A stretch of 64,000 bases of DNA from Clostridia bacterium. GTDB taxonomy: Bacteria; Bacillota; Clostridia; Oscillospirales; Acutalibacteraceae. Below the pieces are notes generated by a model. It saw only the letters and a list, made by a program, of their open reading frames with translations. It had not been told where the DNA came from and did not search any database. A program made the translations under genes and the position numbers. This document shows, in pieces, positions 1,832 through 21,724 of the stretch. The stretch spans positions 7,037 to 71,036 of the forward strand of contig JAKSQO010000001.1 of the NCBI GenBank assembly GCA_024404095.1, read 5' to 3'. Position 1 is the first letter of the stretch, and each line of letters opens with the position of its first letter.

Positions 1832-2821
1832 ATGAGAAAAGAAGAAATTAAAGAGCTTCCCGAAAGTGTCAGAGATTTTCTGCACTATATGAATGTAATA
1901 AAAAACAAGTCCGAGCTTACTGTTCTTGAGTATGCTTCGGATCTGAGAATGTTTTTTCGTTTTATGTACGTTGAACGCGGATTGGTTTCCAAGGACGTTG
2001 ATTTTGATAATATCGCTATCTCTGCGATTGACCTTGATTTTATAAAAACAATTACAATTTCCGACGCATACAGCTTTCTCGCTTACTGTAAGAATGAACG
2101 TCACAACGATGCTGCTTCACGCTCAAGAAAAGCCTCTACATTACGTGGTTTCTTTAAATATCTTAGTGTCAAGACAAAACAGATTGATGAAAATCCCATG
2201 GAAGAGCTTGAATCGCCCAAGACGAAGAAATCCCTGCCGAAGTATCTTACTCTTGACGAAAGTGTTGACCTTCTTAACTGTATTGACGGTAAATTTAAGG
2301 AACGTGACTACTGCATAATCGTATTCTTTCTTAACTGCGGTCTGCGTCTTGCTGAGCTTGTAGGGCTGAATTATAACGATATAAAGTCCGACAACTCAAT
2401 GCGAGTTACAGGCAAGGGCAACAAGGAACGTATTATTTATCTCAATGAGATGTGCATTAACGCATATAATGAGTATATGAAGGTGCGTCCGAATGACGGT
2501 GTAAAGGATAAATATGCCCTGTTCTTAAGCGCAAGGAAATCCCGTATCAGCCCCAAAACAGTTCAGTATATCGTTAAAACCTTCCTTGACAAAGCAGGTC
2601 TTGGCGGCAAGGGCTTGTCCACGCATAAGCTTCGCCATACCGCCGCAACGCTTATGTATCAGCAAGGCAATGTCGACATCCTGCTTATAAAAGAGCTGCT
2701 CGGTCACGAAAACCTTGCTACAACAGAGATTTATACACATATCGTCGACTCTCAGCTCAAGGATGCTGTTTCTTCTAATCCGCTTAACGCTTTATCAAAA
2801 GACAAAAAGTCCGACAAATAA
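1832..2821 (+). CDS. Tyrosine site-specific recombinase, XerC/XerD family
   Basis: I place the start at the ATG at 1832, inside track ORF 1775-2821. The catalytic signature is present: GLRLAEL (Arg), HKLRHTAAT (His-x-x-Arg) and LLGHENLATTEIYTH (His, Tyr). There is an N-terminal SAM-like core-binding domain. Confidence 0.85.
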   Translation: MRKEEIKELPESVRDFLHYMNVIKNKSELTVLEYASDLRMFFRFMYVERGLVSKDVDFDNIAISAIDLDFIKTITISDAYSFLAYCKNERHNDAASRSRKASTLRGFFKYLSVKTKQIDENPMEELESPKTKKSLPKYLTLDESVDLLNCIDGKFKERDYCIIVFFLNCGLRLAELVGLNYNDIKSDNSMRVTGKGNKERIIYLNEMCINAYNEYMKVRPNDGVKDKYALFLSARKSRISPKTVQYIVKTFLDKAGLGGKGLSTHKLRHTAATLMYQQGNVDILLIKELLGHENLATTEIYTHIVDSQLKDAVSSNPLNALSKDKKSDK

Positions 2822-3427
2822 GTATTCAAGCATTGTTTTGATAACGGCTGACGCGATGATATAAATGTAGTATTTGAGATAGGATTTGTAGAATTTTTTA
2901 AAGCTGTAATCAGAAAGCTTACCGTTTTTTGAAATGCATCTGAGCATAAATTCAGACATACTTATGCTTTCACAGCTGCAAAGCACAAGCCCCGTCAGCG
3001 ACAGCACGGCGTACGGAAACACAAGCATAACGCAGTAAGCAAGCCCTTTGAGCGTGTAATGATCGTACATAAAGTAAGAAATCATTCCGATAAGATACGA
3101 ATAACACAGCGGAATAAAATTGACTGCAAAGCCGCCGTACGCACTCAGCCCGAGAAAGAACAGCACAACCGCAAAGACTGTCGGCGGCAGAAGTGAGCTT
3201 ATAAAAGACGAAAGAGGTGTCGAAGCTCCCGAGGAAAGCGTTGACAAGAACAGATCCGTCACTTTTAAAAAGAGCTTCCCCTCCCCTTTGCCGCTCAACG
3301 CTCCGAGCACAAGCCCGGCGACCGAGAATGTCACAGGCACAACTATCTTCCAATTCAGAACAAAATCATTGACTCTGACGCTGTATTTATGCAGGTTCAG
3401 AGTCTTTTTTATTACGGGTGTTGACAT
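2795..3427 (-). CDS. spoIIM: Stage II sporulation protein M (SpoIIM)-like polytopic membrane protein
   Basis: Internal ATG at 3427 is preceded by AGGAGG (rc of 3431-3441 region). The product is 210 aa with about 5 TM helices. The longer track ORF (to 3826) would run into upp. Adjacency to a xerD-like gene mirrors the Bacillus spoIIM-fur-ripX neighbourhood. Confidence 0.5.
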   Translation of the reverse strand: MSTPVIKKTLNLHKYSVRVNDFVLNWKIVVPVTFSVAGLVLGALSGKGEGKLFLKVTDLFLSTLSSGASTPLSSFISSLLPPTVFAVVLFFLGLSAYGGFAVNFIPLCYSYLIGMISYFMYDHYTLKGLAYCVMLVFPYAVLSLTGLVLCSCESISMSEFMLRCISKNGKLSDYSFKKFYKSYLKYYIYIIASAVIKTMLEYLFVGLFVF

Positions 3428-4153: not shown

Positions 4154-4609
4154 TTATTCAACGAATGTTCCGTTTTCAATTGCTGTAATCTGATCTATGC
4201 GTCGCTGATGTCTTCCGCCGCCCTCAAACTCGGTTGTGAGGAAAACGTCAACAAGCTCATTAGCAAGACCTGCACCGACAACACGTCCGCCCATACAGAG
4301 AATATTTGCGTCATTGTGCATTCTTGTAAATTTTGCGCTGAAATAATCTGAACAGCAGGCAGCTCTGACACCCTTGACCTTGTTAGCGGCCATGCTGATG
4401 CCGATACCTGTACCGCAGCAGAGAATACCGAGAATATTCTCGCTTGTAACTGCCTTGCCGACCTTATAAGCGATTGCGGCATAGTCAACTGACTCGGGGC
4501 TGTATGTACCGTAGTCAACAACCTCATAACCGCCAAGCTCCTCAAGATGCTTTTTGATTGATTCCTTAAGCTCGAATCCGCCGTGGTCAGCACCGATAGC
4601 TATTTTCAT
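4154..4609 (-). CDS. rpiB: Ribose-5-phosphate isomerase B (RpiB/LacA/LacB family)
   Basis: 151 aa with [16 protein letters not shown] and [13 protein letters not shown] motifs. Confidence 0.9.
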
Positions 4610-4623
4610 TATTTATCACACCT

Positions 4624-5325
4624 TTATTTTAAATCTTTCTTTGCCTTAAGCTCCCTTTCCGCCTGCGGAAGACGCAGATACTCGGGAACAAGTGCCGACG
4701 CAGGAATGTAATCCTCCCCGCTCAGCTTTTCAGCGGCGTGGCAGACGCCGACTGCGTTCTGATATCTGATGCTATCAGAGGCAATTCTCAGCTCTTTATC
4801 ATCATTTCTCAGCTTATTATAACATATTTCTGCGCCATCGCCAACAAAAATTTTAGATTTTTTGTAATTTTTCAGTTTTTTTCCGAGTTCATCAATGGAA
4901 ATCGCCTCGTCATCAGTCAATCTGTTTATACATTTATCGGAAATGTCAAAAAGAGCTGTATAAACCTGATTACATCTTGCATCCATTACGCAAACAGCGA
5001 TACAGTCGTTATTGATTAGATTGTAAGCCATTGATTCAAGTGTTGAAATACCAGCGCACGGTATGTCCCTGACATCCGCAAGTCCCTTAGCCGCCGCAAC
5101 ACCGATCCGAACTCCCGTAAATGAGCCCGGTCCCTTGTTGACTGCAATCAGACCGATATCATCAAGCTTGACGTCGGCACACTTGAGCGCGCTGTCAATC
5201 ATCGGCATAAGCGTCTGCGAGTGAGTAAGCCCCGTATTGATGTAAAAGCTGCTTATTATTTTTCCGTTTTCTGTCACAGCCGCCGAAGCTGACTTCGCCG
5301 AGCTGTCAATTCCGAGAATTTTCAT
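4624..5325 (-). CDS. tsaB: tRNA t6A37 biosynthesis protein TsaB
   Basis: 233 aa with N-terminal MKILGIDSSAKSASAAV and GPGSFTGVRIGV motifs. It overlaps the tsaE stop. Confidence 0.9.
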   Translation of the reverse strand: MKILGIDSSAKSASAAVTENGKIISSFYINTGLTHSQTLMPMIDSALKCADVKLDDIGLIAVNKGPGSFTGVRIGVAAAKGLADVRDIPCAGISTLESMAYNLINNDCIAVCVMDARCNQVYTALFDISDKCINRLTDDEAISIDELGKKLKNYKKSKIFVGDGAEICYNKLRNDDKELRIASDSIRYQNAVGVCHAAEKLSGEDYIPASALVPEYLRLPQAERELKAKKDLK

Positions 5326-5756
5326 TACAGTATATCTCCGATAATTTCAATTGTTCTGTCGTTTTCGTTTTCCCCGTGGGAGAAATAAATTCTGATGCAA
5401 TTGTCGGGAAGCGCATTTTCTATATTTTCGCTCCATTCAACTGCAAGAATTTCATTGTTGTCAAGATAGTCGAAAAAGCCTGTTGAATACAGATCGTCCC
5501 AACCCGAAATTCTATACATATCAAAATGATAAAGAGTGTTTTTTTCGCCTCTGTACTCGTGAACAAGAGCAAAGGTCGGACTGCTGACATTCTTTTCGTC
5601 AATGCCGAGACCCTCGGCAAGTCCGTGAGTGAATGCGGTTTTGCCCATACCCATAGGACCAAAGTAAGCGACAACATCGCCTTTTCTGAGCTTTTCACCG
5701 AGCTTTTTACCAAGCTCAACCGTATCGGCAACGCTGTGACTCTGAAAAACCGACAA
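5325..5756 (-). CDS. tsaE: tRNA t6A37 biosynthesis ATPase TsaE
   Basis: 143 aa with Walker A GPMGMGKT, SPTFALVHEY and HFDMYR motifs. Confidence 0.9.
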   Translation of the reverse strand: MSVFQSHSVADTVELGKKLGEKLRKGDVVAYFGPMGMGKTAFTHGLAEGLGIDEKNVSSPTFALVHEYRGEKNTLYHFDMYRISGWDDLYSTGFFDYLDNNEILAVEWSENIENALPDNCIRIYFSHGENENDRTIEIIGDIL

Positions 5757-5886
5757 TTAAAACACCCTTTCGTAATTTTTCTTAGGATATTATATCACAT
5801 ATTTTGAATAAGTAAATAACTTTATACTTGAAATTAGCGCAGAATACATATATAATATAATTTAATTAAAATACAGAGGTTATGTA

Positions 5887-7083
5887 ATGAATAAATTTAT
5901 ATATTGGTTCAAGGATATCATGCGCGGCACGGATAAGCTCCTGCTCGGCATCTGTCTTGTTCTTTCATCAATAGGTATTCTTATGGTTTACAGCGCAACA
6001 CGGGTAAATCTGAAAGAAAATATGATTATTTCACGTGACGCACGTACAATGATTATTGCTGTTTTTCTCGGCGTATGCATTGCGGTTGTAATGTCACTTG
6101 TCGATTACGAGGCTGTCACGCGACTATGGCCCATAATTGCCGTTGTCTGTCTCGGGCTGATGGTTTCGTTGTTTTTCTTCGGTAATTCTCCGAGCGGCCG
6201 ACAGGACGCTATTTCGTGGCTTAAGTTCGGCAGCTTCTATTTTCAGCCGTCAGAGCTGTTGAAAATCGGTTTTATTATTACGTTTTCTGTTCATCTTGAC
6301 GCAGTAAAGGATGAAATCAACAGCCTAAAAAACGTAATTTTCCTCGGAATACACGCTATGATAGCAATCGGTCTTGTTATTCTTACGGGTGACCTCGGTT
6401 CGGCTCTTGTTTTCATGGTTATGACAATCGGTATGCTTTTTGTCTGCGGACTCTATCTTCGCTATTTCATTTTCGGCGCAGGTGCGGTTATCGCGGTTGC
6501 TCCCATTGCTTGGTTTGAATTTCTTTCCGACTTTCAGAAGCAGAGATTTATGGCTATTTATTCCCCTGCTTCGCTTACCGAGGCTACATATAAGGATGTT
6601 ATTCTTCAGCAGAAGCTTTGCCTTAACGCAATCGGCTCGGGCAAAATATTCGGTCAGGGGCTTTTTCAGGGCACTTATACTCAGGCGGGAACAGTTCCCG
6701 AAAGTCAGAACGATATGATTTTCTCTGCTATCGGCGAGGAATTAGGTTTTGTCGGCGCGGTCGGTGTTCTTCTGGTTCTTACGCTTCTTATCATCAAAAT
6801 TGTCTGCATCGGTCAGAAAGCGGTTTCACTTACAGGCAAGCTTATCTGCAACGCCGTTGCCGTAATGATCGCAACTCACATTGTTGTCAACGTCGGAATG
6901 TGTCTGAATGTTCTTCCCTGTGTCGGAATTACGCTTCCGTTTATGAGTGCGGGCGGTTCGTCCAATCTTTGCATATATATCGCAATCGGACTTGTTCTCA
7001 GCGTCTACCGCTCATCCAAGGTCGGCAAGCCGATTGATTACAGGCACGGCAAGCTTTATTCACCGTTTACAGAAAGCTATTGA
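5887..7083 (+). CDS. FtsW/RodA/SpoVE (SEDS) family peptidoglycan glycosyltransferase
   Basis: 398 aa and polytopic. It has QPSELLKI, ESQNDMIFS and LPFMSAGGSS motifs characteristic of SEDS proteins. Confidence 0.85.
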   Translation: MNKFIYWFKDIMRGTDKLLLGICLVLSSIGILMVYSATRVNLKENMIISRDARTMIIAVFLGVCIAVVMSLVDYEAVTRLWPIIAVVCLGLMVSLFFFGNSPSGRQDAISWLKFGSFYFQPSELLKIGFIITFSVHLDAVKDEINSLKNVIFLGIHAMIAIGLVILTGDLGSALVFMVMTIGMLFVCGLYLRYFIFGAGAVIAVAPIAWFEFLSDFQKQRFMAIYSPASLTEATYKDVILQQKLCLNAIGSGKIFGQGLFQGTYTQAGTVPESQNDMIFSAIGEELGFVGAVGVLLVLTLLIIKIVCIGQKAVSLTGKLICNAVAVMIATHIVVNVGMCLNVLPCVGITLPFMSAGGSSNLCIYIAIGLVLSVYRSSKVGKPIDYRHGKLYSPFTESY

Positions 7084-18135: not shown

Positions 18136-18987
18136 TTACGCTCCTTTGAAAACAAGAAGTACAATAATACCGAGGATAATTCTGTAAACACCGAAAAGGG
18201 TAAAATTATGCTTTTTGATATAATTCATCAGAAGTCTTATCGCAAGAAGAGAAATTGTAAATGCGGCAATCATTCCGTCAATGAGAATTACAAACTCCAT
18301 TGCAGAGAAATTGAAGCCGAATTTAAGCAGCTTAAGTGCAGATGCACCGAGCATAACGGGAACTGCGAGGAAAAATGAAAACTCGGATGCAACACGTCTT
18401 GAATTGCCGAATGTTATACCGCCGAGAATTGTAGCGCCTGAACGTGAGGTGCCGGGAATAAGTGCAAGTGCCTGAAAAGCACCCATGATAAGTGCATCCT
18501 TGAAGGTCAGTTGAGTCAGCTTGCGAATTTTAGGAGGACGTTTTTGATTAAGAAATTCAACAACAATAAACAGAACGCCGTAGATAATAAGAGTAATCGC
18601 AACTGTTTTATAGTTGTAAAGATACTTGTCAAGCAGATCATCGAGCAGAACACCGAGAATACCCGCAGGGATACAGCCGGCAATGACCTTAAGCCAGAGA
18701 TTGATAATGCCCTTTCTGACCTTCATAACCTTTGTGCCGTTATCGCTGACTACACGTCTGAACGGACACAGCTTGTTCCAGAACATTACAACAACGGCAA
18801 GAATTGCTCCGAGCTGGATAACAACAAGGAACATATCGAAAAAGCCGTCGGAAACATCGCCGAATTCCATAAACTTTTCAGCGATAATCAGATGTCCCGT
18901 ACTGCTTATCGGGAGCCATTCGGTTATACCCTCGATAACTCCGAAGATGAGCGATTTTATAATATTGAGAAAATATGTTGCCAACAT
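18136..18987 (-). CDS. uppP: Undecaprenyl-diphosphate phosphatase
   Basis: 283 aa. It has the BacA/UppP motifs GVIEGITEWLPISSTGH and PGTSRSGATI and is polytopic. Confidence 0.95.
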   Translation of the reverse strand: MLATYFLNIIKSLIFGVIEGITEWLPISSTGHLIIAEKFMEFGDVSDGFFDMFLVVIQLGAILAVVVMFWNKLCPFRRVVSDNGTKVMKVRKGIINLWLKVIAGCIPAGILGVLLDDLLDKYLYNYKTVAITLIIYGVLFIVVEFLNQKRPPKIRKLTQLTFKDALIMGAFQALALIPGTSRSGATILGGITFGNSRRVASEFSFFLAVPVMLGASALKLLKFGFNFSAMEFVILIDGMIAAFTISLLAIRLLMNYIKKHNFTLFGVYRIILGIIVLLVFKGA

Positions 18988-19037
18988 CAGTTTCCCTCCG
19001 AAAGAATAGTATTGTTAATATATATGTACAGGTTAAT

Positions 19038-19066
19038 ATTATACTACACGTCTTATGTATTTGCAA
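19038..19066 (-). promoter_or_regulatory. Sigma-A-type promoter for uppP
   Basis: On the minus strand: TTGCAA (19061-19066), 17-nt spacer, TATAAT (19038-19043). Confidence 0.6.
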
Positions 19067-19081
19067 CTGAAAAAGACAAAA

Positions 19082-19108
19082 GCTCACGGATTTTTCTTTT
19101 CCGTGAGC
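19082..19108 (-). terminator. Rho-independent terminator after the HTH-cupin-acyl-CoA synthetase gene
   Basis: GCTCACGG/CCGTGAGC hairpin is followed on the minus strand by TTTTGTCTTTTT. Confidence 0.75.
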
Positions 19109-19115
19109 CACATTT

Positions 19116-21389
19116 TTAAAGCTTATTTCTGATAATCTTGCCGCTTGTCGTTTTCGGAAGCTCATCCTTGAATACAACAATTCTCGGATACTTATAAGGT
19201 GCGGTGTGTTCCTTAACGTAAGTCTGAATTTCCTTTTTAAGTTCTTCGGTCGGTTCAGTTCCCTTGGTAAGAACAATGCTCGCCTTAACAACCTGACCTC
19301 TGATTTCATCCGGAGCGGCAGAAACTCCGCACTCAAGAACATACGGAAGCTCCATGATAACGTTTTCAATCTCAAATGGTCCGATACGGTAGCCTGATGA
19401 TTTGATTACGTCGTCAACACGGCCGACATACCAGTAGAAGCCGTCCTCGTCCTTCCATGCGACATCGCCTGTATGGTACATTCCGTCATGCCAGCATTCC
19501 TTTGTTTTGTCCTCAGCGCCGTAGTAGCCGATGAACAGACCGCACGGAATTGTATCACCTGTACGAACGACAATTTCGCCCTCCTCACCTACTCCGACCG
19601 GCTTGCCGTCAGCGTCAACAAGGTCGATATCATAAGACGGAACAGGCTTACCCATTGAGCCGAGACGGTGGTCTGAACCGAAGAGATTGCCGATAAGAAG
19701 TGTTGATTCACTCTGACCGAAGCCCTCCATAACCTTAAGCCCCGTGAGCTTGTTGAGCTGTCGGAATACTTCGGGATTGAGTGCCTCACCTGCTATTGTT
19801 GCGTGCTCAACCGAGCTGAGATCGTACTTTGTGAGATCTTCCTTAATCATCATACGGTACATTGTCGGCGGACAGCAGAATGTTGTAATATTATATTTTT
19901 TAAACATCGGAAGTATTTCTGCGGCGTTGAAGCGGTCAAAATCGTAAACAAAAATCGCGCCCTCGCAGAGCCATTGACCGTAGAGCTTACCCCACATAGC
20001 CTTTGCCCAGCCTGTGTCGGAAATGGTAAGATGAAGTCCGTTGGGGTTAACGCAATGCCAGTAGTTGGCTGTAACAAAATGGCCGAGCGGATATTTGAAG
20101 TTATGAGTTGCGATTTTCGGATAGCCTGTTGTGCCCGAAGTAAAGAACATGAGCATCATATCACTGCCGCAGGCTGAATCCTCGGTGCGCTCAAATGTAT
20201 TTGAATAGAGCTTATATTCCTCGTTGAAGTTGTGCCAGCCCTCACGCTCACTGCCGACAATAATCTTTGTCTTAACAGTCGGAGAATTCTTAATTGCAAG
20301 ATCAACCTGATTTGCGGAATCACCGTCAGAGGTGCAGATGACAGCGCTTACTCCTGCCGCATTAAAGCGGTAGTCAAGGTCGTGCTCCTGGAGAAGATAT
20401 GTTGCGGGAATGGCGATTGCGCCGAGCTTATGAAGAGCGAGAATCGAGAACCAGTACTGATAGTGACGTTTAAGTATAAGCATAACTCTGTCACCCTTTT
20501 TAATGCCGAGCGACTTAAAGTAATTTGCGGTTTGTGAGGAATATTCCATCATGTCTCTGAATGTGAATCTTCTCTCCTGCTTGTTGTTGTCAACGTGTAT
20601 CATGGCTGTCTTATCGGGACATTTCCTGCCGAGGCCGTCAACAATATCGAATGCGAAATTGAACATCTCTTCATTTTCATATGAGAGTGACAGCAGTGCG
20701 CCGTTCTCGTCCTCTTTCGGATGAATAAAGTTATGATAAATACGCTTGCCTGTGCCTGTTCTCTTCGGTGAATTGTCATCAATCTTGTTGATTTCTGACG
20801 GAGTTTCGCCCGACGGATTGAAAACAAGAGCATAGAAAATTGTTTCCTTATCACCAACGGAAATCATACCGTGAGGTGTGGATGAATCGTAGTAAATTGT
20901 GTCGCCTGCGTTGAGAATTTCAACGTGATTGCCGACCTGAACACGAAGAGTACCGCTTACAACAATGTCAAGCTCCTGTCCCTCATGGGTTGTAAGAGCG
21001 ATATCGTTATCACCCTTGCCGGGGTCGCACTTAACAAAAAGCGGTTCGCAGATTTTATTTTTAAATGTGGAAGCAAGGTTATAGTATTCCATGCCGTGCG
21101 CATGGTCAATCAGCTGTCCCTCGCCGTTTCTTGTAACAGTATAGGAGGCAAGAACGGGGCTTTTACCTTCGATAATATCTGTTACATCAACATTGAAAGC
21201 GATAGCACATCTGTAAAGGAAAGCGAAGTTAAGATCTTTTTCGCCACGCTCGCAGGCGATATATTCTTCGATTGTAACATCCGTCTTTTCAGCCATCTCA
21301 GCGGGTGTGAAGCCGACAACCTCGCGAAGCTCACGGATACGCTGAGCCATTTCGCTGATTTTGAAATCAAGTCCTGTCATTTCTTTCAT
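19116..21389 (-). CDS. Fusion protein: XRE-type HTH + cupin domain + AMP-forming acyl-CoA synthetase (ANL family, medium-chain/ACSM-like)
   Basis: Uninterrupted 757-aa ORF. The HTH is MAQRIRELREVVGFTPAEMAEKTDVTIEEY, and the cupin is HEGQELDIVVSGTLRVQVGN...YYDSSTPHGM. ANL cores are present: FTSGTTGYPK, YHTGD, GRVDDVIKSSGYRIGPFEIE and LPKTTSGKIIRNKL. Confidence 0.85.
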   Translation of the reverse strand: MKEMTGLDFKISEMAQRIRELREVVGFTPAEMAEKTDVTIEEYIACERGEKDLNFAFLYRCAIAFNVDVTDIIEGKSPVLASYTVTRNGEGQLIDHAHGMEYYNLASTFKNKICEPLFVKCDPGKGDNDIALTTHEGQELDIVVSGTLRVQVGNHVEILNAGDTIYYDSSTPHGMISVGDKETIFYALVFNPSGETPSEINKIDDNSPKRTGTGKRIYHNFIHPKEDENGALLSLSYENEEMFNFAFDIVDGLGRKCPDKTAMIHVDNNKQERRFTFRDMMEYSSQTANYFKSLGIKKGDRVMLILKRHYQYWFSILALHKLGAIAIPATYLLQEHDLDYRFNAAGVSAVICTSDGDSANQVDLAIKNSPTVKTKIIVGSEREGWHNFNEEYKLYSNTFERTEDSACGSDMMLMFFTSGTTGYPKIATHNFKYPLGHFVTANYWHCVNPNGLHLTISDTGWAKAMWGKLYGQWLCEGAIFVYDFDRFNAAEILPMFKKYNITTFCCPPTMYRMMIKEDLTKYDLSSVEHATIAGEALNPEVFRQLNKLTGLKVMEGFGQSESTLLIGNLFGSDHRLGSMGKPVPSYDIDLVDADGKPVGVGEEGEIVVRTGDTIPCGLFIGYYGAEDKTKECWHDGMYHTGDVAWKDEDGFYWYVGRVDDVIKSSGYRIGPFEIENVIMELPYVLECGVSAAPDEIRGQVVKASIVLTKGTEPTEELKKEIQTYVKEHTAPYKYPRIVVFKDELPKTTSGKIIRNKL

Positions 21390-21420: not shown

Positions 21421-21688
21421 ATAAAAAACCCGTCCCAAAGTAAAAATCTTTGAGACGAGTTATAAACCCGCGGTACCACTCAAATTGCATTCCGAAGAAT
21501 ACCTCTTACGGACTCTGACAAGTCCTGTGCTTTTACGCAGCCATACGGAAGGGTTCTACTCGCCTTTGCTTTCTTCCCTCCGGCTCAGAAACTACAAACC
21601 TGCAACTTTCATTTATCGGTTTTCACCAATACCGACTCTCTGAGAAATTACTTGATTACAGGCACTTTTCGTCAACGCCTTTTCTTTT
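21421..21688 (-). promoter_or_regulatory. T-box riboswitch leader (tRNA-sensing transcription attenuator)
   Basis: Minus-strand elements are as follows. A K-turn-like GUUGA...CUGAGCC closes the Stem I base. The AGAGAG box plus distal loop AUUGGUGAAA lies at plus 21621-21644. The T-box sequence AAUUUGAGUGGUACCGCGGGU lies at plus 21466-21486. The terminator CGUCUCAAAG/CUUUGGGACG plus U6 lies at plus 21421-21457. UUUGAG/CUCAAA pairing gives the competing antiterminator. Confidence 0.85.
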
Positions 21689-21695
21689 TTATCTG

Positions 21696-21724
21696 ATTTT
21701 AACATGACAAAATGTAATTGTCAA
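21696..21724 (-). promoter_or_regulatory. Sigma-A-type promoter driving the T-box leader
   Basis: On the minus strand: TTGACA (21719-21724), 17-nt spacer, TAAAAT (21696-21701). Confidence 0.65.

Follow-up and report, generated by a model that had tools for sequence, protein, structure and literature searches.

A valine T-box-controlled acyl-CoA synthetase of Clostridia carries an XRE-cupin module as a probable enzyme partner

The 64,000-nucleotide stretch analyzed here (the window; Clostridia bacterium, assembly GCA_024404095.1, contig JAKSQO010000001.1, positions 7,037–71,036) contains a gene at 19116–21389 on the minus strand that encodes an XRE-like helix-turn-helix (HTH) domain, a cupin barrel, and an AMP-forming acyl-CoA synthetase (ACS) in one polypeptide of 757 amino acids. 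The enzyme family and the regulator fold are each known, but their partnership, although very widespread, is unstudied. On balance, we favor the reading that the protein is an isobutyrate-type CoA ligase gated by a valine T-box, and that its HTH and cupin domains (together called the N-module) form a tethered sensor or accessory module that derives from XRE-cupin proteins and acts on the enzyme. The N-module itself is best read as a descendant of the XRE-cupin regulator fold that has become, in this lineage, a dedicated partner present in equimolar amount with the synthetase.

Domain organization and spread of the fusion

The open reading frame (ORF) starts with an ATG that is preceded, six bases upstream, by an AGGTG ribosome-binding site. 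Its parts are as follows (all on the minus strand).

19116–21389, minus strand: fusion ORF (XRE-like HTH, cupin, AMP-forming ACS), a single frame of 757 amino acids.
21168–21374, minus strand: five-helix XRE-like domain, residues 6–74; AlphaFold helices and Pfam HTH_19 at residues 16–76 (28.7 bits, cut-off 30.2); acidic, net charge −6; under purifying selection.
20814–21128, minus strand: cupin β-barrel, residues 88–192; Pfam Cupin_2 at residues 126–186 (46 bits, cut-off 27.2); strands 92–190; His-135, Glu-139, and His-173 invariant in the family.
20778–20813, minus strand: flexible linker between N-module and ACS, residues 193–204; pLDDT <50 in the full-length model; least conserved stretch.
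19521–20627, minus strand: N-terminal (adenylation) domain of the ACS, residues 255–623; Pfam AMP-binding (214.7 bits, cut-off 29.9); motif A3 (FTSGTTGYPK) inside, motif A7 (YHTGD) just past its end.
19137–19373, minus strand: C-terminal domain of the ACS, residues 673–751; Pfam AMP-binding_C (75.6 bits, cut-off 24.5); A10 lysine in PKTTSGK.

A preliminary description, made from the sequence alone, had proposed this three-part arrangement, and the single frame and the domain matches bear it out. Whereas the cupin scores above its Pfam cut-off, the HTH_19 match falls slightly below, and a single-sequence search of the Protein Data Bank (PDB) with the N-module gave only weak HTH hits, making a profile search necessary. 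This search yielded a match to PDB entry 1Y9Q that runs across both HTH and cupin (positions 6–186). In the AlphaFold model of the N-module, built on an alignment of 31 N-modules (mean pLDDT 90.7), five helices (residues 6–25, 29–35, 40–47, 55–65, and 69–74) are followed by the strands of the barrel. The five helices and the match to 1Y9Q over both domains confirm the XRE fold of the N terminus.

The sequence motifs quoted in the preliminary description were all found in place. In the synthetase, these are FTSGTTGYPK (residues 416–425), YHTGD (638–642), GRVDDVIKSSGYRIGPFEIE (656–675), and PKTTSGKIIRNK (745–756, with PKTTSGK at 745–751); in the cupin, they are HEGQELDIVVSGTLRVQVGN (135–154) and TPHGM (171–175). 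The core motifs A3, A7, A8, and A10 of the ACS are intact and, like the other motifs quoted, invariant in 103 sequences, including Lys-751.

The fusion is not peculiar to this genome. The best 120 database homologues (70–92% identity, from many independent assemblies) all possess the same four domains within 750–790 amino acids. Beyond these homologues, 102 genes at 80 genomic loci have a frame free of stop codons, and 106 fusion genes were counted in 80 loci from species-representative genomes. Of 399 genomes of the class that were sampled and scored, 259, representing 134 of 216 genera, contain a match to the N-module at E ≤ 1e-8; in ∼220 of the 259, the best match reaches E ≤ 1e-22, and a majority carry two matches. 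The HTH–cupin–ACS architecture is therefore very common in the class, not rare, and its usual state is two fusion copies of ∼760 amino acids per genome.

The possibility of an assembly join or frameshift, raised in the preliminary description, is answered by this conservation, because a frame kept across many independent assemblies excludes such a join. A few database entries do show the two halves as separate ORFs, but what separates them is a collinear frame switch within a gene that is otherwise identical, and in one case every gene of the contig is fragmented. With more than 220 independent full-length fused genes on record and 131 of the 150 best genome matches to the N-module lying in open frames of at least 750 amino acids, it is scarcely conceivable that a regulator gene and a ligase gene were joined by sequencing or assembly error. 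Among close homologues, L082, L083, and L084 seemed to carry split genes, but these were rejected as collinear frameshifts of this kind.

Valine T-box, substrate, and pathway

Upstream of the ORF, three further elements were identified.

21696–21724, minus strand: promoter TTGACA-17-TAAAAT with TG extension, 11 of 12 matches.
21448–21684, minus strand: T-box leader (Rfam RF00230) with specifier GUA (Val) and acceptor-binding bulge UGGU.
21427–21461, minus strand: intrinsic terminator of the T-box, with a 14-bp stem and a U run.

The leader is a valine T-box. It matches RF00230 over the full length of the model (positions 1–219) with 93.3 bits (gathering score 93), and the specifier, GUA followed by G, was read from the Rfam alignment. 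Together with the UGGU bulge and the terminator, this upholds the earlier suggestion that the fusion gene is under T-box control. The same control extends through the family: a T-box core is present at ∼100 of the 106 fusion genes, with GUA or GUC as specifier in the clade of the window protein (62 parsed) and AUC in its sister clade (15 parsed), and a near-consensus TTGACA-17-TATAAT is common to 81 non-identical promoters of orthologues and paralogues.

At three apparent exceptions, tandem repeats have been inserted and the T-box is shifted ∼500 nt upstream. Here, three to four copies of a ∼100–125-nt unit lie between T-box and fusion ORF (L003, ∼2620–3168; L012, ∼5450–6001; L013, ∼590–1011). 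In L003 and L012, the T-box core lies ∼550 nt upstream. A pattern search in L013 gave no core within 560 nt, and displacement at this locus is deduced from the same repeats as in the other two.

The synthetase half points to a short branched-chain acid as substrate. Its closest solved structure is 3ETC (615 bits), the ACS MacsMa of Methanosarcina acetivorans, which prefers 2-methylbutyrate (PMC10455477). The best NCBIfam model is MbcS (NF047394) with 448.3 bits, which does not reach the equivalog cut-off of 850; the ACS half is a subfamily related to MbcS and not an MbcS equivalog.

The genome from which the window derives (95.9% complete) gave no hit for IlvD, as compared with hits in 14 of 14 control genomes, and only hits of 20–30 bits, none of them convincing, for KARI (IlvC). 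An IlvE-type transaminase and a LeuA-like gene are present. This genome appears to lack a de novo route to valine and isoleucine, for which the organism would rely on branched-chain acids or the import of amino acids.

A second fusion in the same genome (L001, 7901–10171, contig C22) lies directly behind a T-box with an AUC (Ile) specifier. Its N-module is 49% and its ACS 73% identical to that of the 757-amino acid protein. On its 3′ side, with gaps of 13 and 11 nt, follow a CbiA/ParA-like gene, a 68-amino acid 4Fe-4S ferredoxin, and the VorB-type α-subunit (547 bits, cut-off 399) and β-subunit of a 2-oxoacid:ferredoxin oxidoreductase. The missing IlvD, the lack of a convincing IlvC, and this isoleucine T-box paralogue in a VorB-type operon make it most likely that isobutyrate is fed into valine synthesis. 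We therefore assign the 757-amino acid enzyme, with considerable confidence, as a short branched-chain ACS that is most likely specific for isobutyrate and would supply valine synthesis.

In the proposed pathway, transcription would start at a strong constitutive promoter and read through the leader only when uncharged tRNA-Val stabilizes the antiterminator of the T-box. The fusion enzyme would then convert isobutyrate into isobutyryl-CoA, which the VorB-type oxidoreductase encoded beside the isoleucine-type paralogue could reductively carboxylate to 2-oxoisovalerate, and the IlvE-type transaminase would yield valine. Each entry ligase would thus be turned on by a shortage of its own charged tRNA.

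The cluster around the paralogue recurs in dozens of loci, with the usual order TIM-ACS (described below), isoleucine-type fusion, valine-type fusion, CbiA-like gene, and oxidoreductase. The CbiA/ParA-like P-loop protein (220 amino acids, L001 10185–10847) occupies the same place, between fusion and oxidoreductase genes, in most related loci; it found no match in an NCBIfam search and may be a maturation or assembly factor. Just upstream of the paralogue (L001, 3191–7427), a third T-box with a CUC (Leu) specifier precedes a LeuA-like gene (470 amino acids) and a gene for an 834-amino acid fusion, the TIM-ACS. This protein combines a xylose-isomerase-like TIM barrel (AP_endonuc_2, residues 20–234) with a distinct ACS that is ∼25% identical to the 757-amino acid enzyme, and its gene was also found in L051, L052, and L078.

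In the window, no terminator-like site was found between the stop codon of the fusion gene and the downstream gene uppP (18987–19116). A promoter-like TTGCAA-17-TATAAT is located between the two genes at 19038–19066 on the minus strand. Transcription through the fusion gene into uppP is possible.

The N-terminal module as partner of the synthetase

In other families, the N-module occurs as a free protein, and there it keeps the company of the same enzyme. We examined six split pairs from five other families, plus a seventh case (L117), and in all seven loci, which together represent six other families, the gene for the free module (184–195 amino acids) lies directly upstream of, and in the same orientation as, the gene for the orthologous ACS. 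In L121, for example, the module is encoded at 5876–6430 and the ACS at 4195–5856. In the six pairs, the free module comprises 184–187 amino acids and is 31–39% identical, and the ACS is 50–56% identical. Most gaps measure 13–50 nt (13 nt in L117), one measures ∼190 nt, and the two called frames of L119 overlap. The survey for split orthologues that the preliminary description had called for thus gave a divided answer, with only frameshifts among close homologues and true, adjacent, co-oriented gene pairs in distant families.

In L119 (6720–6955, genome G022), the split pair stands behind a T-box with an AUC (Ile) specifier; no T-box was found at the Rfam gathering score at the other six of the seven pairs. 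In L115 (4684–5295, genome G011), an orphan free N-module sits beside YkuD and Clp-ATPase genes. The syntenic locus L117 has the ACS in between, and L115 seems to have lost the ACS and kept its partner. Annotation pipelines label the free copies “XRE family transcriptional regulator.”

In a tree of the ACS domains, the fused valine- and isoleucine-type proteins form one group (support 84/80) to which no split-pair enzyme belongs, and the valine clade is monophyletic (96/98). This topology fits a single fusion event followed by duplication, with the root of the tree tentative owing to a very long outgroup branch. Rough dN/dS values, with dS saturated at 1.2–2, are ∼0.05 for the HTH, 0.09 for the cupin, and 0.05 for the N-terminal domain of the ACS. 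The HTH is as constrained as the adenylation domain, indicating that the N-module is functional and not decaying. Taken together, we consider it probable that the N-module is a partner of the enzyme rather than a transcription factor.

The fold of the module does not by itself identify a regulator. The preliminary description had taken HTH plus cupin as the normal architecture of a stand-alone regulator, which holds for proteins such as PuuR but not for the enzymes (S)-2-hydroxypropylphosphonate epoxidase (HppE), HEPD, and MPnS, which share the fold. The top profile and fold matches of the N-module place 1Y9Q, a structural-genomics entry labeled a regulator (Foldseek E 1.7e-14), on an equal footing with HppE, HEPD, MPnS, and Psf4 (41.5 bits in the profile search, fold E ∼3e-14, TM ∼0.5). 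Because these four enzymes possess the same two domains, the architecture cannot by itself mark a protein as a regulator.

All 103 fused and all 21 free members have His-135, Glu-139, and His-173 in the cupin; in the alignment, these residues correspond to His-138, Glu-142, and His-180 of HppE. We had considered this triad as a tie to the HppE-type enzymes and dropped it, as the same residues are found in PuuR, a proven repressor from Escherichia coli. The triad is a general feature of the fold and decides nothing on DNA binding.

One alternative casts the N-module as a metallo-cupin with catalytic activity, as in HppE. It would perform an auxiliary reaction, for instance a proofreading hydrolysis or an isomerization, and its substrate would be the acid, the acyl-adenylate, the acyl-CoA, or the 2-oxoacid. 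The invariant residues, their alignment with the iron ligands of HppE, and the rank of the four enzymes among the fold matches speak for it. The TIM-ACS of the same cluster demonstrates that ACSs can be fused to enzyme-type folds, in this case AP_endonuc_2, which we take to be a family of mostly metal-dependent enzymes. Furthermore, a need for proofreading is conceivable, as MacsMa is reported to mishandle non-cognate acyl-adenylates (PMC10455477). However, the non-enzymatic PuuR has the same residues, the proposed pathway requires no further chemical step, oxygen-dependent cupin chemistry is hardly to be expected in an anaerobe, and Pfam and NCBIfam searches gave the module no match to a catalytic family. 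We regard a catalytic role as unlikely.

The preliminary description had suggested a trigger enzyme or an autoregulatory arrangement. In such a protein, the HTH would bind DNA and repress or activate its own gene or branched-chain amino acid genes, with the cupin or the state of adenylation as a BirA-like switch. In its favor are the complete XRE-cupin fold with its end-to-end match to 1Y9Q, the cupin residues shared with a repressor, the strong purifying selection on the HTH, and the six T-box-free split pairs, which need another regulator. Moreover, those XRE-cupin proteins that have been characterized act locally, repressing metabolic genes next to their own (PMC7901475).

The HTH itself argues against this role. 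A two-round HMM search of the ORFs of this genome gave 37 XRE-type HTHs, of which those of the two fusions are the most acidic pair (net charge −6 and −7), with a median of −0.5 over the 32 near-full-length matches, the two fusions included, and charges between −5 and +5 for the other domains. In the same alignment columns, E. coli PuuR has a charge of +3, whereas the averages are −4.9 for ten fused modules and −5.6 for 21 free partners. Over helices 2 and 3, the charge is −5 in the fusion as compared with 0 in PuuR. Helix 3 of the fusion reads VTIEEYIACERGE, whereas almost all other XRE proteins of the genome carry S/T-x-x-x-[ILV]-S-[KR]-[WY]-E; in the fusion, E-E-Y-I-A-C stands in place of the usual polar and basic residues. 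Invariant in the HTH are Arg-17, Arg-22, and Glu-47, which presumably include structural salt-bridge positions of XRE domains rather than base contacts.

The promoters examined offer no counterpart either. No conserved palindrome or operator was found at the 81 non-identical promoters of the fusion genes themselves, whose spacers and flanks are unconserved. Upstream of eight free N-module genes (six from split pairs and two solitary), we found short AT-rich repeats and nothing shared, a weak negative given the distance between these families. In the window, a perfect inverted repeat (TGACAA-N7-TTGTCA, 21705–21724, minus strand) lies over the −35 box of the fusion promoter. We rejected it as an operator, because it is missing from a 91%-identical orthologue and from 80 other leaders; it is probably fortuitous. 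Finally, the tight, co-oriented coupling and the fusion itself better fit a stoichiometric subunit. The trigger-enzyme proposal is thus not supported, and we judge it improbable; judged from these sequence features, the N-module most likely no longer binds DNA.

A purely architectural role, in oligomerization or in docking the synthetase to the oxidoreductase or the CbiA-like protein for acyl-CoA channeling, appears equally improbable. It would agree with helix 4 (FAFLYRCA), and not helix 3, as the most conserved surface of the HTH, with the common dimerization of XRE and cupin domains (PMC7901475), with the co-occurrence of the module with CbiA-like and oxidoreductase genes in most loci, and with a cupin core that is the same in the valine and isoleucine clades. 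However, a scaffold has no need of an invariant, pocket-type His/Glu/His set, and both the window copy and the split pairs of other families lie far from oxidoreductase genes.

The reading that we prefer is that the N-module acts on the enzyme itself as a small-molecule sensor, possibly assisted by a metal. 1Y9Q was crystallized with D-methionine in its cupin pocket, and characterized XRE-cupin factors sense metabolites of their pathways (PMC7901475), which makes ligand sensing the default assumption for this cupin. The cupin core is nearly identical between the valine and isoleucine clades, and this points to a ligand feature that is common to both pathways. Such a module would add a fast, post-translational layer to the slower control by the T-box and might respond, e.g., to the end product, to a 2-oxoacid, or to a CoA species. 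That the module is an allosteric sensor specifically can be put forward only tentatively. The same reservation applies to the idea that an XRE-cupin repressor fold was converted into a dedicated regulatory domain, which would sense a metabolite, possibly through a metal held by the His/Glu/His residues, and gate adenylation.

The analysis establishes the architecture, its conservation, the T-box specificity, the gene context, the acidity of the HTH, and the lack of an operator at the promoters examined; substrate, loss of DNA binding, allosteric action, and ligand are all inferred from these. Several points weigh against this reading. The substrate assignment rests on the T-box codon, the gene context, and the relatives 3ETC and MbcS. 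Net charge is a mere indicator of DNA binding, and the operator search was confined to the genes' own promoters. At the six split pairs that lack a T-box, the small protein could still regulate its operon. Lastly, a cupin core that hardly differs between the two clades misfits a sensor specific for an amino acid side chain.

Significance and comparison with known systems

According to Allison and Bryant in the 1960s, rumen and gut anaerobes reportedly need or use isobutyrate, 2-methylbutyrate, and isovalerate for the synthesis of valine, isoleucine, and leucine. The genes of this branched-chain acid route and their control are poorly defined. The fusion family, found in over half of the genomes sampled from the class, is a likely entry enzyme, for which the T-box codon provides a built-in substrate label. 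If our reading is correct, most gut and rumen Clostridia would place the salvage of branched-chain amino acids from fermentation acids under two-tier control, by a tRNA-sensing RNA and a protein sensor, and the N-module would represent an allosteric domain of a new class among ANL enzymes. A module that responds to a metabolite could further offer a handle on branched-chain acid use in rumen nutrition and gut ecology. The family presents a transcription factor fold recruited as an enzyme partner in both split and fused forms, which makes it tractable for studying how a regulator turns into an allosteric domain. It also calls for caution in annotation pipelines that name the free modules as regulators.

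The author of the preliminary description knew of no characterized member, and our literature search found no paper that describes the HTH–cupin–ACS architecture or a ligase of this type under T-box control. The fusion can nevertheless be set beside several known systems, each of which covers a part of it.

The XRE-cupin factors (PuuR; ErfA, PsdR, and PauR of Pseudomonas aeruginosa; 1Y9Q of Vibrio cholerae) resemble the N-module in their two-domain fold and its order, and the cupin of PuuR has the H-x-G-x-E...H residues of the fusion cupin. Like the free N-modules, these factors are ∼185 amino acids long when free-standing and adjoin metabolic genes. However, they bind palindromic operators as dimers (PMC7901475), whereas the HTH of the fusion is acidic (−6, as compared with +3 in PuuR) and has no conserved operator. 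The module also differs from these factors in its tie to one enzyme clade, either by fusion or by translational coupling.

HppE, HEPD, MPnS, and Psf4 provide the precedent for an HTH-like α-domain and a cupin as parts of an enzyme. The α-domain of HppE is also acidic (∼−4, counted on the alignment), although the group shares only 18–20% identity with the N-module. These enzymes belong to phosphonate antibiotic pathways and use the cupin as a catalytic iron site, whereas the fusion is found in the context of amino acid salvage in anaerobes. No phosphonate genes were present in the fusion contexts examined (T-box and ACS; oxidoreductase genes at the paralogue).

The ACS half resembles MacsMa and MbcS of Staphylococcus aureus, two ACSs for short- and medium-chain branched acids. 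The alignments with the MbcS model and with 3ETC start only at about residue 240–256 of the fusion, so that the HTH–cupin region is covered by neither. MbcS activates isobutyrate and 2-methylbutyrate (PMC10026030) and serves the priming of membrane fatty acids, whereas the fusion is placed in amino acid synthesis.

Trigger enzymes combine an enzyme and a DNA-binding fold in one polypeptide, as in BirA, PutA, and NadR, for which DNA binding has been demonstrated. BirA, moreover, forms an acyl-adenylate, as the ACS of the fusion would. These enzymes bind DNA, whereas the indicators of DNA binding are negative for the fusion. The nearest case of an ACS that regulates transcription is FadD1 of P. 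aeruginosa, which is reported to bind promoters (PMC12754631); unlike the fusion, it has neither HTH nor cupin.

The leader of the fusion gene, in turn, is comparable to the ilv-leu T-box of Bacillus subtilis. Both are class I transcriptional T-boxes with a branched-chain specifier that control the supply of the cognate amino acid. That of the fusion, however, controls no de novo biosynthetic enzyme, tRNA synthetase, or transporter but a ligase that would activate an acid for reductive carboxylation.

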